Positions 17,783-23,120 of a DNA stretch of 64,000 nt are shown piece by piece. Source of the DNA: Candidatus Latescibacterota bacterium. Lineage in GTDB: Bacteria > Latescibacterota > UBA2968 > GCA-2709665. The position numbers and the translations under genes were made by a program. The stretch lies in NCBI GenBank assembly GCA_965248435.1, contig OZ252100.1, forward strand, positions 3,200,001 to 3,264,000. The letters run 5' to 3'. Under the pieces are notes generated by a model that had not been told where the DNA came from, did no database searches, and was given only the letters and a program-made list of their open reading frames with translations. Position 1 is the stretch's first letter; each line of letters opens with the position of its first letter.

Positions 17783-19976
17783 CTATGCCACAGCGCCGTT
17801 CGCCTTCAGAAGGGCCTCGACTTTGGTGTGGCCTTTTCGCTCTGCCCAAAAGAGAGGCGTGGCCCACGGTTCGTCATCAGGAAGGTTCGGCTTCGCCCCG
17901 TGCTCCATGAGCCACCCGGCCATATCTGCGTGCCCGTTCATGGCGGCCCAGGCGAGCGGGGTCGCTTTGTAGACGTCGTCTCGCGCGTGGATATCCGCCC
18001 CGTATTCCAGCATCACATCGAGCCCATCGGCATTCCAGACGCTCCTGAATGGGTGTTCCCCGAAGCCCAGCCGCGCCATGACGTGAAGGATGAACTTCCC
18101 GCCCCGAGCCTGCACGTTTGGGTCCACACCGTTCTCGAACAGTTCACGAAGCACGTTCGGCCAGTTGCGGGCACGATACAGCGTCCATTGACTCACCTTC
18201 TTCGCGTCCGCACCCGCACGAAACGCCATCCGCACGATTGCGAGAGGTTTTTCTTCGGGGAGCTGCTCGTCGAACGTCGAGATGAACTCGTCGGCCAGTG
18301 ACGGATCAGCCTTGAGAACCGCCGCCGCCACGGGCAGGTCACCCTTTTGCGCGTAGTAATAGGAATACACGCTGCCACCATACGACGCGAGGAGATCGGC
18401 CATCTCTGAGAACCCCTTGTTAAGGGCCCAGCTCATCGCATTCCCGCTCGAATCAGACCACGCGTCCGGATCTGCTCCCGCTTCCAGCAGGAGACGCCCC
18501 GACTCCAGGTCGTTGTGAAACGATGCCATAAACAGCGGGTACGCGCTGCCCTCTAGCCTGCGTCTCCTCCTCTGCATTCGGATCGGCACCCGCCTCCAGC
18601 AGCAGTTTTACGATGTTGCTTCGTTGATAGATCGCTGCATAGCTCAGAGGTCGGATACTGCAGGTGTCCGGCGCGTTGGCCCGTGACCTGTCCTCTTCCA
18701 AGAGGAGCTCGACACGCTCGCGATCGCCAAGCGCAGCGGCGATATGAATCGTCAGCTCCGCACCCTTCTCTACGAAATAACGGGTCACATCCAGACGTCG
18801 AAATCCGGATCCCCGCCAGGGGCTGTTGCTCCAGATCGTCAGGTGAATCGGCTGATACCCCAGGAAGTTCTTCGCTTCCAGGTCGGCCCCGCTTTCAACA
18901 AGGTGATCGATCAGGGTCAGGGGGGCGTTCTCGATTTGCGCAGCTCGATGCAGGAGTGTATTGCCGTCATCATCGGCCGCACGAACCCGGGCGGGGTCTT
19001 CTTCGACCAATGCGGATATCTGATCGAAATGCACGTCGGTCAGCTCCCCGGGCGGCAGCGCCAGAAGTTCTCGAATCGGATCCTTTTCGGATACCTTGTC
19101 CTGATCGGATCTGCGAGCAGTTTCCAGCAAGGTCACGACTTCGTCGAATCCCCTCAGTCGGGCGATTTCGAGCGTCGTAATCCCTGCGTGATTACGAAGC
19201 ATGTGCTCATACGGGTCCGGGTTCGCGCCCCTTTCAAGCAATACCCTGACGACTTCGGTGTGGCCTTCACGGACGGCGTAGTGCAACGGTGAGAAACTGT
19301 CCCTACCATCCTCCTTGAGCAGATCGGGCTGATCATCAAGAAGCTTCGTTACCGCATCGACATCGCCGGCCTTGCACGCATTGATGAGGTAGACTTCAGA
19401 AGCGAAGGTGTCGTCAACAAACGATGTCTTCTCCGGTTTGACCTTCTTCGCCATCGCGGACATCCTCTCTTTGATCATCCGTCTGCCGGAACGCAGCCGG
19501 TTCTTTACCGTGGAAACTGGTATCTCCAGAAAAGTGACGATCTCTCTCTGGGAGTAGTCGCCGAAGTAGAACAGGCTGATGACTTCCCGCTCAGAGTCAG
19601 GAAGTGTTCGAAGCGCGTTGAGAACCGCCGTCCGATCCTCCTCGGCCTCCATCAACAAATCCTGACCCGGCTCGCTCGTTGGAATCTCAGAGGTCTCCTC
19701 CAGAGAGACCGCCTGCTGAGATGCCCCACGTGCCCTCTTGCACTGGGTGACCAGGATTCGGCGAAACCAGGAGGCAAAGGCTTCTGGCGCCTTCAGGCTC
19801 GGCAGGCTCCGATACGCGGCCAGAAAGGCCTCCTGGGCCGCGTCTTCCGCCAGATGATAGTCGCCCAACACAGAGAACGCGTAGCCCACGGCCATGTTCT
19901 GAAACCGGCGGACAATGGCGTCAAAGGCTACAAGATCCCCGCTGCGGGCGCGACTAATGAGCTCGGTCAGTTGCAT
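17783..19976 (-). pseudogene. ECF sigma-70 factor fused to a long ankyrin-repeat extension, frameshifted near 18550
   Basis: Sigma regions AFDAIVRRFQ, AEDAAQEAF, STVKNRLRSGR, followed by ankyrin repeats (SPLHYAVREGH, RPLSYAA..GADPN). The repeats resume in the +1 frame (YPLFMA..GADPD, TPLAWAA.NGH, TPLFWAE.KGH). Confidence 0.8.
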
Positions 19977-20013
19977 GGGTTGGGCTGGAGATGACTTTGG
20001 CCAATCATCTAAA

Positions 20014-20046
20014 AAGAGTCCAGAATCGTGTAGAGGTGTACGAAAA
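20014..20046 (-). promoter_or_regulatory. Candidate ECF autoregulatory promoter 2
   Basis: Minus strand TTTTCGT-ACACCT-CTACAC-GATTCTGGA-CTCTT; aligns without gaps to 16573-16605. Confidence 0.45.
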
Positions 20047-20113
20047 GATTCCGAGTGACGTGGGCTAAGCCCAAAGGTCCCATTTTTAGCCTTCTCAAGA
20101 AGATTTTCCAGGC

Positions 20114-20148
20114 AAAAGAAAGGGCGACGGCCCTTAAACCCATCGCCC
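20114..20148 (-). terminator. Rho-independent terminator after the ankyrin gene
   Basis: Minus strand GGGCGATGG-N9-CCGTCGCCC-TTTCTTTT. Confidence 0.75.
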
Positions 20149-20167
20149 CCTCTGGACTCTGAAATCG

Positions 20168-21742
20168 TCAGTCAGAAATCGCTTTCCTCTCTCCCAATAC
20201 GCGATCCACAACCTCGTGCCCCGTCGGAAGCTGGATCCTCCCGTAATCCGCTCCGGCCTCGATCAGCGCATCGATGATCCCTTCCGCCTCCCGATCGTTC
20301 CCCTTCCCGGTCACCCATCCGTAGATCGATGAGCTCAACGGCGTGCCGTTGAAGTCGTGGGTTGCGGTCAGATCCGCACCGCGGTCGATGAGCAGCTTCA
20401 CGATGTCCAGATGCCCGTACCATCCCGCCTGATGGAGCGCCGTGAATCTATACTGCCCTCTAGCCTCGATGTCGAATCCCAGGTCCAGCATCAGGTGGAC
20501 TGCGTCGGCGTGTCCCTGAACGGCGGCGTAGGTCAGGCAGGCCTGGTCGGATTCGGTCAGTTCGCCCAGGACATTGGGTGCCGTCTCCAGAATCTTCCGG
20601 GCGCCTGGTTCATCGGCCATCGCGCACGCTGAGACGAACTGTTCCTTCGTCGTGGGGGTTCCGGCAAACCCGCGCGTCTGGATCGAATCCATCACGTCTT
20701 TCCGTCCTCTGACGGCCGCGAGCACGAAGGCAGACTGTTCGTCTACCTCCAGGTTGGGATCGGCGTTAGCGTCCAGGAGCGTGTCGATGATTTCGATAGA
20801 ACGGTAGCGGATGATCGCGTGCTGCAGCGCGGTCTTGCCGAATCGTCGCGCATCGTTTGGATCGGCGCCCATCTCCAGCAGTGCACGGACGGCATCCTGT
20901 TCCTCGAAGTCCAATTTTCGAAACAGGGTCGTCGTCAGATGCTCGCGATCGAGCCCGTGGTCTGCCAGAGCCCGGGCGCACGCGATCGGTGCTTCACCTG
21001 CGTGGTAGTAGGCCTCGTCGTCGTCCAGGTTCGCGCCGCGCTCGAGGAGCAGGCGGGCAAGGTCCGGGTTGAGCGACACTCCGATTGCGCCGAAGAGCGC
21101 GGTCCCCGCACCTTCGTCCAGAGGAAACCAGGCATTCGGGTCAGCTCCATTGTCGAGCAGCAGCCTTGCGATCTCAGTAAGCCGCCGGGGATAACCCCTA
21201 TCTGTGTGGCGATGGAGGCGCGAGTAGCTCGCGTAGAGGATCGGCGACCATCTCCGCACACCGCAGGGTGTCGTCGCGACGGATGCATCGTTGCCGATCG
21301 CCCGCGCCACGGCCTGGACATTCCCCGTGACGATCGATGTCTCGAACGTCTCCGACGACAACTTGGGATGAGTGGCCAGCATGTCACAGGCTTCCCTGAA
21401 CTCTGTCGCATGAAGATGGTCCTCCGCGTTGCAGTTCGTCGCAACAGCGCGGTCGATGAACCTCTCGACCGTCACGGCGTCTGCGTCACCCTTCATCTCA
21501 CCACGCGCGGCCAGATGATCCATCAGGGCCCGCCAGCTGTCGAACCCGAACTCTCTCGCGATGACCGACTGGGCATCTGCGAGGGAGGTGTCGGCGTCTT
21601 GCGAATCCGCGTACTTGGGCAGGACGGCGCCAAACCGCTCGAGCGCCTCACTGTCGCGCGCACGAAAGGCCTTCAACAGGCGTTTGGCCTGATTCCGAAG
21701 GTGCTCCGCGTTGGGTCTGGGAGGTAGATGCTTGGAAGACAT
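20168..21742 (-). CDS. Ankyrin-repeat protein with N-terminal helical LPxRP..E.L..QAK.LL / AQ..IARE.GF.SW domain
   Basis: N-terminal LPPRPNAEHLRNQAKRLL...LADAQSVIAREFGFDSW; ankyrin repeats LLDNGADPN, TALQHAI, TALHQAGWYGH, GTPLS. Confidence 0.85.
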   Translation of the reverse strand: MSSKHLPPRPNAEHLRNQAKRLLKAFRARDSEALERFGAVLPKYADSQDADTSLADAQSVIAREFGFDSWRALMDHLAARGEMKGDADAVTVERFIDRAVATNCNAEDHLHATEFREACDMLATHPKLSSETFETSIVTGNVQAVARAIGNDASVATTPCGVRRWSPILYASYSRLHRHTDRGYPRRLTEIARLLLDNGADPNAWFPLDEGAGTALFGAIGVSLNPDLARLLLERGANLDDDEAYYHAGEAPIACARALADHGLDREHLTTTLFRKLDFEEQDAVRALLEMGADPNDARRFGKTALQHAIIRYRSIEIIDTLLDANADPNLEVDEQSAFVLAAVRGRKDVMDSIQTRGFAGTPTTKEQFVSACAMADEPGARKILETAPNVLGELTESDQACLTYAAVQGHADAVHLMLDLGFDIEARGQYRFTALHQAGWYGHLDIVKLLIDRGADLTATHDFNGTPLSSSIYGWVTGKGNDREAEGIIDALIEAGADYGRIQLPTGHEVVDRVLGERKAISD

Positions 21743-21875
21743 GTCAACCCTCTCTCGGAAAGTCGCCCGGGGCCCGCACGCTCAGGCAGAGAAGAAGGTT
21801 GATAATAAGATGTATTGCAGAGGAGGGTGGGCTTTGCCCTTTACGCGGACCTGGAGGCGCCCCTTGCGCGCCGAT
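21743..21875 (-). ncRNA. Candidate structured cis-regulatory 5' leader RNA
   Basis: Hand-paired stems GGUCCGCGU/GUGCGGGCC, CGCCU/GGGCG, hairpin GGGC-AAA-GCCC, and an anti-SD UCAACCUUCU complementary to AGAGGGUUGA. Confidence 0.55.
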
Positions 21876-21880
21876 GGTGC

Positions 21881-21909
21881 AATATAGCGCCATCCAGGAT
21901 TCGCGTCAA
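21881..21909 (-). promoter_or_regulatory. Sigma70-type promoter of the ankyrin gene
   Basis: TTGACG-N17-TATATT, defining a leader of about 130 nt. Confidence 0.65.
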
Positions 21910-21918
21910 GCAGGGTCG

Positions 21919-22293
21919 TTATCTGATGCCAAGCCAGATCAGGACTGCGATTACCAGGAGGACACCCCACGAGAAGTGCCTGCCTCTGGATACGGCGAAC
22001 GACACGATTGCTGAGGCGAGGAAGGTAAGCGCGATTGCGCAGACCAGCTTTTGAATATCTTCACCCGCTGGCATCGACGCCAGAAGAACCAGCAGCGCGC
22101 TGAAGCCCCACCAGGAGACACTCACGATATGCCAGAACAGGCGCAGCACCCTGAGCGTGAACACCGAGGATCCGAGGGTTTCGGGCAGTCCCTCGGTCGC
22201 CAGTTTCGAAAGAATCAGGCGCTCTCCAAGGACCGAGTGCAGCAGGCCCCCTACCGCGCTCAGGCCTGCGGCCACCAGAAGGGGCGTGTTCAT
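21919..22293 (-). CDS. Small four-TM membrane protein
   Basis: Start ATG 22293 overlaps the upstream stop (ATGA); hydrophobic segments, HSVLGE, WH..S, SRGRH..W. Confidence 0.7.
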   Translation of the reverse strand: MNTPLLVAAGLSAVGGLLHSVLGERLILSKLATEGLPETLGSSVFTLRVLRLFWHIVSVSWWGFSALLVLLASMPAGEDIQKLVCAIALTFLASAIVSFAVSRGRHFSWGVLLVIAVLIWLGIR

Positions 22294-23120
22294 CCTGTTC
22301 CCTCCACAGAGGTCAGCCGACCGGCCGGGTTGGGTTTTCCCCAAACGATGTCCGAAGTGCACCTGCCCTGAATCCGGCCATCGATCAGGTTGACCGTTCC
22401 CTCTGCTGCCTGTTTTTCGATCCGATCGCGAACCAGGTCGTCGAAGGCGTTTGCGCGCTCCTCTCCCATCCTGTCTCTCGACAGGCCGTTTTGAGAGTGC
22501 CGACACTCCAGGTATACTTCGACGGTCGGACACCAGGCGGTAGATCCCAGATCGACCTCACCGACCCGTTCGAAAAGGTCTGCTTCCTGAACCGCCTGGA
22601 CGTGATTCCACGGAAAATATTTCTGGTTGGTAGAGTATTCGGCGATGAACTCATTGTCCTTGATTCCGGTGACCCAGTCGCGTTCGACGATGGCCAGGTA
22701 ACCCTCAGGAGAGAGAAGATCGGCGAACCGCGGCATCACCAGATTCAGGTCGAACCAGTGCAGACAGGCGCCCGCTGTGATCAGGCCGTAGGGACCCGTG
22801 ACCGGCGCGGTCTCGATGTGCGAGGCCACCCACGTGATCCCCGGATGGTCTCCTCCCGCGAGTGTTCGAGCTCGCGCGATCATCCGCTCCGAGAAATCCA
22901 CCGCGTCAACGCGTGCGACGCGCTCGGCCATCGGCCGCGCGATGTCGCCAAGTCCGGTGCCGACATCGAGCAGGGCATCGACCTCCGGATCGATCAACTC
23001 CGCCAGCTTGTCGTAAACCTCATCGGGATAGGGCGGCCGGGCGTGATAGACCTGAACCACGCTGGCGTCTTGAAAGGTCCTGGCGTATTCCTCGCCCCGA
23101 AACTCTGGTTTGTTGAGCAT
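22290..23120 (-). CDS. Class I SAM-dependent methyltransferase
   Basis: YHARPPYP, LLDVGTGLG, VDAVDFS..MI, CLHWFD. Confidence 0.85.
   Translation of the reverse strand: MLNKPEFRGEEYARTFQDASVVQVYHARPPYPDEVYDKLAELIDPEVDALLDVGTGLGDIARPMAERVARVDAVDFSERMIARARTLAGGDHPGITWVASHIETAPVTGPYGLITAGACLHWFDLNLVMPRFADLLSPEGYLAIVERDWVTGIKDNEFIAEYSTNQKYFPWNHVQAVQEADLFERVGEVDLGSTAWCPTVEVYLECRHSQNGLSRDRMGEERANAFDDLVRDRIEKQAAEGTVNLIDGRIQGRCTSDIVWGKPNPAGRLTSVEGTG

Follow-up and report, generated by a model that had tools for sequence, protein, structure and literature searches.

The window analysed here is a stretch of 64,000 nucleotides from a Candidatus Latescibacterota bacterium (GenBank assembly GCA_965248435.1, contig OZ252100.1, positions 3,200,001 to 3,264,000), and the element identified in it is the 5' leader of a gene encoding an ankyrin-repeat protein, situated at 21875-21737 of the minus strand. 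Based on sequence comparisons, this leader most probably belongs to a widespread and unannotated class of folded RNAs, the conserved fold of which would keep the translation of a single gene OFF in cis (probability about 0.85). The fold is conserved among the relatives, it lies over the Shine-Dalgarno (SD) sequence of the gene, and its occurrence is linked nearly one to one with an N-terminal protein domain of about 80 residues. The best overall explanation, in which the gene product also feeds back on its own leader, is proposed tentatively.

Six helices, referred to as P1, P2, P3, P4, PK1 and PK2, can be written on the window sequence (Table 1). P1, P2, P4 and P3 are nested, and PK1 and PK2 are pseudoknot helices. 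The covariance model of the class (R1) matches the window leader at model positions 1-133 of 133, with a score of 83.5 bits and an E-value of 1.5e-17, and this is the sole match in the window. R1 takes P1 as a 4-bp register (21869-21866 with 21860-21857), and the loop of P1 ends in AAGGG. PK1 comprises 9 pairs in the window, 3 of them G-U, and P3 comprises 13 pairs with one bulge and is present in the minimum-free-energy fold. The hairpin made up of P3 and P4 alone has a computed energy of -27.3 kcal/mol, and its SD bases are predicted to be unpaired to at most 2%.

The sequences and coordinates given in a preliminary description of this DNA are all correct. The hairpin GGGC-AAA-GCCC noted there is present and is the covarying P2, its long-range helix is PK1, which is conserved and covarying in the relatives, and its crossing helix over the ribosome-binding site is the likewise covarying P3. 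The extension CGCCU/GGGCG assigned to the long-range helix has to be given up, as these bases belong to the 3' strands of the covarying P1 and P4. The two helices had been suggested to form either a pseudoknot or mutually exclusive ON and OFF folds. The pseudoknot is retained and the exclusivity is not, because the helices share no bases and the partner strand of PK1 sits in the loop of P4, itself enclosed by P3; PK1 and P3 are thus predicted to form one knotted fold. The second pseudoknot, PK2, is an addition to the earlier description.

The folding energy of the single leader sequence is not better than that of shuffles (z = +0.47), a measure that is uninformative here because pseudoknots are not modelled. 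As the leader alone folds no better than shuffles and has no match in Rfam, the case rests on comparison. Close orthologues of the whole protein are absent from 60 related genomes, in which only the N-terminal domain is matched, with 35-50% identity, and the comparison therefore drew on paralogues and on several phyla. The sequences of 170 nt ahead of the domain genes resemble one another strikingly, and more closely than these proteins do. R1 was built from an alignment (A3) of 28 de-duplicated sequences out of 43 leaders of the same geometry, seeded by loci that were found with a DNA pattern (L033-L152). This pattern fixes CCGCGG, AAGG, CCTTCTTTC and GCGG, so that conservation at these blocks is built in, and the covariation counts relied on here come from two alignments without any DNA-pattern loci. 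One of them (A4) has 27 leaders found through the protein. The other (A7) draws 55 leaders from 70 loci identified through either the protein or the model, near-identical copies from genus g3 and three matchless loci having been dropped, and includes 20 leaders from relatives of an Amycolatopsis genome.

The compensatory changes extend to every helix. In the larger alignment 95.1% of the cells pair as compared with 86.0% in shuffles, and double changes are seen in 23 of the 30 pairs; none of 500 shuffles reaches any of these measures, and slid controls are only 42-52% paired. In the protein-found leaders 96.0% of the cells pair, with changes on both sides in 17 of the 30 pairs, and again the observed values are reached by 0/500 shuffles. 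For the individual helices of the larger alignment the paired fraction is 97.3% in P1 (both-side changes in 4/4 pairs), 98.2% in P2 (double changes in 3/4), 94.3% in P3 (9/10), 96.6% in P4 (4/5) and 92% in PK1, the compensated variants of which include GCCCGC/GCGGGC, AUCCGC/GCGGAU, GUUCGC/GCGAAC and GCUCGC/GCGAGC. The covariation that the preliminary description had proposed to look for upstream of the domain homologues is therefore present, together with conservation, beyond the level of 500 shuffles. Across the relatives P1 is a hairpin of 4-7 bp, and P3 is formed by the anti-SD tract ACCUUCUUUC with the SD tract GAAAGGAGG, over 10-14 bp and often extended toward the AUG. One pair of P3 occurs as UG in 26 sequences, UA in 18 and CG in 10, and the frequency of such G-U pairs indicates that the minus strand of the window is the strand read as RNA.

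PK2 was counted separately from the 30 pairs of the other helices. Across the relatives, the P1 loop ends in 3-5 bases that can pair with those after the conserved A that lies 3' of P2, as exemplified by GCAGG/CCUGC, GAAGG/CCUUC, ACGGG/CCCGU, GCCGG/CCGGC, UUGGG/CCCAA and CGAGG/CCUCG. Contiguous runs average 3.76 pairs in the leaders, as compared with 2.76 +/- 0.09 in 1000 shuffles, the highest of which reaches 3.07. The third pair is AU in 24, GC in 19, GU in 3, CG in 1 and UG in 1 of the sequences and is unpaired in 4, a score reached by 0/500 shuffles. The unpaired bases that are nearly invariant are CC before PK1, GG-N-AAG before P2 and the A after P2, and about 40 positions of the leader are near-invariant across phyla. 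Two further candidates were rejected: a CsrA-type GGA site in the P1 loop, as the loop is paired in PK2 and the GGA is not constant, and a mimic of the tRNA acceptor end made up of P2 and ACC, as CC is followed mostly by U or C. In a subfamily of Acidobacteriota (L035, L051, L069, L095, L108) the linker carries GAAGG at 7-8 nt 5' of the anti-SD CCUUC. Pairing of the two might yield a small hairpin and thereby release the SD, which would make the GAAGG an anti-anti-SD; this GAAGG is absent from the window leader.

Promoter-like sites are found within 50 nt 5' of P1 in 50 of the 135 leaders listed and in 2 of 135 control windows. Across the homologues the distance from the end of the -10 hexamer to P1 is 5-11 nt, which indicates that the RNA begins with the fold. 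Excluded from both the promoter and the protein counts are 12 of 150 loci that fail the looser pattern or the start rule (L007, L023, L025, L026, L031, L032, L081, L093, L115, L124, L132, L141), among which L132 looks like a chance match.

A wide distribution of the leader is revealed by the DNA pattern derived from four conserved blocks, which occurs in at least 120 places in contigs of one genome per species. The titles of the matches listed include many Acidobacteriota, Amycolatopsis and Actinopolymorpha, Inquilinus, Sulfitobacter and other Alphaproteobacteria, Gemmatimonadota, Latescibacterota, Poribacteria, Chthonomonadales, Truepera, a Chloroflexota family, delta- and gamma-proteobacterial bins and Planctomycetota, which we take to represent about ten phyla. 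R1 matches are also found in 19 of 41 relatives of an Amycolatopsis genome and in 11 of 40 relatives of an acidobacterial genome (9 of 38 without the unpublished G138 and G142).

The leader is closely tied to the N-terminal domain. In the 5.67-Mb genome of the window exactly two R1 matches are found, each directly 5' of one of its only two domain genes. The second leader (L002, G000:C1:939563-939957, minus strand, 76.1 bits) precedes a gene of 210 aa in which the domain is fused to a fold like that of glyoxalase and bleomycin-binding proteins. In 61 related genomes R1 identifies 64 leaders in 24 genomes, and the domain has 57 matches in 23 of the 61, nearly always at the start of the open reading frame (ORF) with the remainder differing. 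A leader is situated within 250 nt upstream in 48 of the 57 domain matches, and the domain follows 58 of the 64 leaders, 48 of which were recognised by single-sequence search and 10 more by profile; at least 4 of the latter are frame-broken or partial. These counts bear out the remark in the preliminary description that similar leaders precede genes with this domain. In four genomes of other phyla a leader occurs at every strong domain match (E < 1e-13), and two weaker matches are without one. The linkage holds whatever the C-terminal part, which in the related genomes may be ankyrin, a glyoxalase fold, tetratricopeptide repeats (TPR) with pentapeptide repeats, a FliG-like or a peroxiredoxin domain, or nothing known. 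No conserved neighbour genes are found in 114 loci, the recurrent clusters being antisense ORFs over the gene itself. Ahead of one leaderless domain gene (L026, G006) the position of the leader is occupied by a sequence that resembles a tRNA gene by eye.

The N-terminal domain has the signature LPxRPxLxxLKKQAK ... AQxxIAREYGFxSW and is mildly basic, with a median net charge of +3 over 80 residues and a positive charge in 75 of 93 sequences. A search of its profile against 1.84 billion entries identifies 11,169 representative clusters at E <= 1e-3 and 6,407 at E <= 1e-10, and among the 150 matches listed the domain lies almost always at residues 1-90. Ankyrin repeats are present in 68 of the 80 complete, distinct ORFs behind the pattern-found leaders listed. 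In the top 120 representatives the partner domains are ankyrin (39), Clp_N (14), Glyoxalase_8 (9), LRR (6), ClpX zinc finger (3), FliG_C (3) and FliM (2), and are thus mostly protein-binding modules. The Clp_N and ClpX zinc finger domains, seen in 14 and 3 of these metagenome-wide relatives (P0001-P0120), are known as the partner-binding domains of AAA+ unfoldases, and their fusions hint that members of the family may act as adaptors or decoys. In ESM Atlas the domain matches only clusters of hypothetical proteins. Residues ~47-80 of the window protein, which correspond to the AQxxIAREYGFxSW half, weakly match the N-terminus of the NCBIfam entry PRK05973 'DNA helicase' (E 6e-7 for an Amycolatopsis homologue), and the second half of the domain also weakly matches part of the Pfam family Glyoxalase_8 (PF20066). 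Many members of the family have the domain or its second half twice in tandem.

The following mechanism is proposed for the leader. Transcription would start a few bases 5' of P1, and the leader RNA would fold into one compact body of six helices, in which P3 pairs the anti-SD tract with the SD and is predicted to reach within 2 nt of the AUG. In this folded state the 30S subunit would be kept from the SD and initiation would be blocked. The conserved structure is suggested to be the OFF state because the 30S subunit could not reach the SD in the fold, and it is from this that we infer both an effect on translation and its direction. The conserved domain of about 80 residues may then bind the double-pseudoknot core, and such putative binding would either lock the OFF fold or speed its formation. 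The outcome would be a negative feedback on proteins which share the domain as a 'handle' joined to varied binding modules (ankyrin, TPR, LRR, Clp_N, ClpX zinc finger, glyoxalase fold). The domain is favoured as the candidate effector because it, and not a metabolic role, is the constant feature of the regulated genes. That the product sets the state of its leader through this domain is possible, with the odds somewhat against it.

Several observations weigh against feedback by the product. The adjacency of leader and domain could be a plain co-inheritance of a 5' module, the 3' parts of which have been swapped. With its 130 nt, its two pseudoknots and its unpaired bases that hardly vary across phyla, the fold bears more resemblance to a metabolite aptamer than to most protein-binding leaders, and P3 seems so stable alone that a repressor would hardly be needed. 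Nine of the 57 domain matches have no leader (one of these lies at a contig edge), and six of the 64 leaders have no domain. The latter precede FliG-like ORFs (L162, L167), a small ankyrin ORF (L166) and short remnants (L155, L160, L168). In G049, a genome of 88% completeness, two leaders occur and the profile detects no domain; in another genome, G003, three domain genes are leaderless and one leader lacks the domain. The model of the domain has five helices (pLDDT 75.7) and is without a significant neighbour among PDB structures (none at E <= 0.001; best E 1.4), and a profile search of PDB sequences gives no relative (best E 0.012). The match at this last value, to the coiled helix of a clock protein, is taken as chance. 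Judged from this model and from the sequence searches, nothing appears to mark the domain as RNA-binding.

The alternative that survives best is a riboswitch, in which the core would bind a small molecule or an ion that stabilises the fold and shuts translation, the domain being linked to it through a function related to the ligand. An aptamer would be in keeping with a large knotted fold whose near-invariant unpaired bases are kept across about ten phyla, and with an SD that is built into the conserved fold as in the SAM-II, preQ1-II and guanidine-III riboswitches. It would also accommodate the leaders ahead of genes without the domain, of which L162 (G049), L167 (G053) and L166 (G003) are intact with scores of 55-79 bits, as well as the absence of a detectable domain in G049. 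Of the domain, the ORF behind L162 retains no more than the initial ~14 residues; the ORF behind L166 has 75 aa. The regulated genes, however, show no association with an enzyme, transporter or biosynthetic gene; their products are repeat or binder proteins, the N-terminal domain is their only common denominator, and neither they nor the 114 neighbourhoods without conserved genes allow a ligand to be proposed. A candidate ON-state helix between the SD-like GGNAAGGG and the anti-SD tract is pairable in 87.1% of cells, a level also attained in 500 of 500 shuffles and in the slid controls. A riboswitch is considered unlikely, though less so than the explanations that follow.

A trigger of another kind is less probable still. 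The leader may respond to temperature, a global RNA-binding protein, a helicase, a small RNA or processing by an RNase, or may confer a constitutive low translation along with stabilisation of the mRNA. The high stability of P3 agrees with this in that its opening may need an active factor or heat, and P3 has conserved G-U pairs and, in the window copy, a bulge; the pyrimidine-rich unpaired linker could act as a standby site for the ribosome. Thermometers and standby leaders are, however, usually simple and poorly conserved, in contrast to the two pseudoknots and about 40 near-invariant positions seen here, no Rfam thermometer family is matched, and a GGA-binding protein that might use the P1 loop would find it paired in PK2. 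It is very improbable that the conservation stems from a DNA operator or promoter element, a repeat or an unrecognised coding region, as might be thought from the unremarkable single-sequence fold and the adjoining conserved promoter, for compensatory changes occur in all six helices, the long-range ones included, the G-U pairs work on this strand only, the genome has only two copies, and the element sits 3' of the -10 box and extends to the ATG.

The features of the locus are given in Table 1. The promoter TTGACG-N17-TATATT and the leader of about 130 nt reported earlier are both confirmed. The promoter scores 10 of 12 consensus matches, 2 promoter-like sites are found in 19900-22400 against 0.5 expected, and the transcription start is predicted near 21874, just 5' of P1, which gives a leader of ~132 nt up to the ATG at 21742. 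No ORF of note lies in the interval from the promoter to the ATG. The gene had also been credited with its own terminator. A terminator-like hairpin does exist 3' of it, but terminator-like sites near the gene are not enriched (2 against 1.8 in shuffles). The gene looks monocistronic.

Table 1. Features of the ankyrin gene and its leader in the window. Positions are those of the 64,000-nucleotide stretch.
Feature	Position	Strand	Details
Sigma-70-like promoter	21881..21909	-	-35 TTGACG 21909-21904, 17-nt spacer, -10 TATATT 21886-21881
Whole leader RNA, including the ATG and 3 more bases	21737..21875	-	Covariance model R1
P1 hairpin	21856..21872	-	GGCGC 21872-21868 with GCGCC 21860-21856
PK2, 5' strand AGGG	21861..21864	-	3' end of P1 loop; pairs with CCCU 21827-21824
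PK1, 5' strand GGUCCGCGU	21843..21851	-	Conserved core GUCCGC 21850-21845
P2 hairpin GGGC-AAA-GCCC	21829..21839	-	Stem 21839-21836 with 21832-21829; conserved AAA/AAG before, conserved A after
PK2, 3' strand CCCU	21824..21827	-	
Variable linker, pyrimidine- and A/U-rich	21803..21823	-	Neither sequence nor length conserved in the alignments
P3, 5' strand, anti-Shine-Dalgarno UCAACCUUCUUCUC	21789..21802	-	
P4 hairpin	21765..21787	-	GCCUG 21787-21783 with CGGGC 21769-21765
PK1, 3' strand GUGCGGGCC, in P4 loop	21771..21779	-	Pairs with 21851-21843
P3, 3' strand GAGAGAGGGUUGA, holding the SD	21744..21756	-	Ends 2 nt before ATG 21742-21740
Regulated ankyrin gene	20168..21742	-	524 aa, ATG at 21742-21740
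N-terminal helical domain of its product	21497..21742	-	Residues ~1-82
Terminator-like hairpin and T run	20120..20135	-	33 nt past the stop codon; weak basis

The first ~270 residues of the window protein have no Pfam match, and the Pfam ankyrin matches lie within residues ~280-470, in the C-terminal half. The matches above the Pfam cut-offs are Ank_2 (90.3 bits, cut-off 27.3) and Ank (81.6 bits, cut-off 21.1). The NCBIfam entries for Legionella Dot/Icm ankyrin effectors and the MzaA sigma factor are not reached, the best match being 41 bits against a cut-off of 600 (equivalog cut-offs 450-1400); these matches cover generic ankyrin repeats only and lie far below the cut-offs. PADLOC gives matches of ankyrin type only. 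Directly 3' of the gene, at 18453-19976 of the minus strand, an extracytoplasmic function (ECF)-type sigma factor with regions 2 and 4 and C-terminal ankyrin repeats is encoded, and another ankyrin-repeat ORF (17783-18589, minus strand) overlaps the end of this sigma-ankyrin ORF, so that three ankyrin proteins follow in a row. R1 identifies no leader ahead of either of these two ORFs.

With regard to known RNA families, the statement in the preliminary description that no known riboswitch class could be assigned is upheld by Rfam 15 (4227 models, including all curated riboswitches, ribosomal-protein leaders and thermometers). In the region 21500-22200 the only match at E <= 10 is a chance miRNA match inside the coding region, the whole window has no family at the gathering score, and among 13 homologous loci only a tRNA elsewhere reaches that score. 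In the published literature, as covered by main texts and exclusive of the survey supplements in which motifs are listed, no description of the leader motif or of the N-terminal domain was found, and the word 'ankyrin' has 0 occurrences in the main texts, taken apart from their supplements, of the structured-RNA surveys of 2010, 2017, 2019, 2021 and 2024. With moderate confidence, the leader is regarded as a new and so far undescribed class among the structured leaders that sequester the SD.

Conserved, knotted leaders that occur in many phyla are rare, and the earlier ones have mostly been riboswitches or autoregulatory operators that led into new biology, as exemplified by the sensing of fluoride, guanidine and ZTP. 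It is rather probable that the leader and the domain constitute either a phylum-spanning RNA-protein module that gates proteins of the 'handle plus binder' type, represented by more than 10,000 clusters, the RNA being read by the handle of its own product in nascent or free form, or a new riboswitch class for a signal that this family of proteins responds to. If so, this would be a new class of regulatory RNA and would provide a first functional clue to an uncharacterised protein domain. Both candidate partners, the RNA and the domain of 80 residues, are small and easy to make.

One motif in a recent preprint could be related to the present leader, or may not be. Its passage on cluster #630,527 describes a covarying motif directly 5' of glyoxalase, flavin monooxygenase and NmrA-like genes as 'a common 5' leader' (bioRxiv 10.64898/2026.10.21.760802). 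The paralogue in the genome of the window is likewise a glyoxalase-fold fusion, whereas most of the genes considered here encode ankyrin proteins, which go unmentioned in that passage; the comparison is one of descriptions, and not of sequence or structure.

The riboswitches SAM-II/SAM-V, preQ1-II and guanidine-III are known for translational control in which the SD lies within a pseudoknotted aptamer. They have aptamers of 35-80 nt and short SD helices. The present leader is similar to them in having the SD inside a conserved pseudoknotted fold, a wide distribution and invariant unpaired bases. It differs from them in its length of about 130 nt, its SD helix of 10-14 bp, its two pseudoknots and the absence of an Rfam match, and its regulated genes give no hint of a ligand.

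The leader also recalls that of the alpha operon (rpsM-rpsK-rpsD) of E. coli, in which a double pseudoknot surrounds the first gene's ribosome-binding site, where S4, itself encoded in the operon, binds and blocks initiation. The likeness lies in the double pseudoknot around the ribosome-binding site. No relation of sequence or family is known between the two; the protein here is non-ribosomal and without a known RNA target, its binding is putative, and the fold is larger with the SD buried in a long helix.

Even on a conservative reading the leader would be a new orphan class of cis-regulatory RNA and worth a family entry. The orphan motifs of the Breaker and Weinberg surveys, such as yjdF, raiA and those with DUF names, are called after the uncharacterised gene family downstream, and the leader described here resembles them in having been found by comparison, in its strong covariation and in being tied to one gene family of unknown role.

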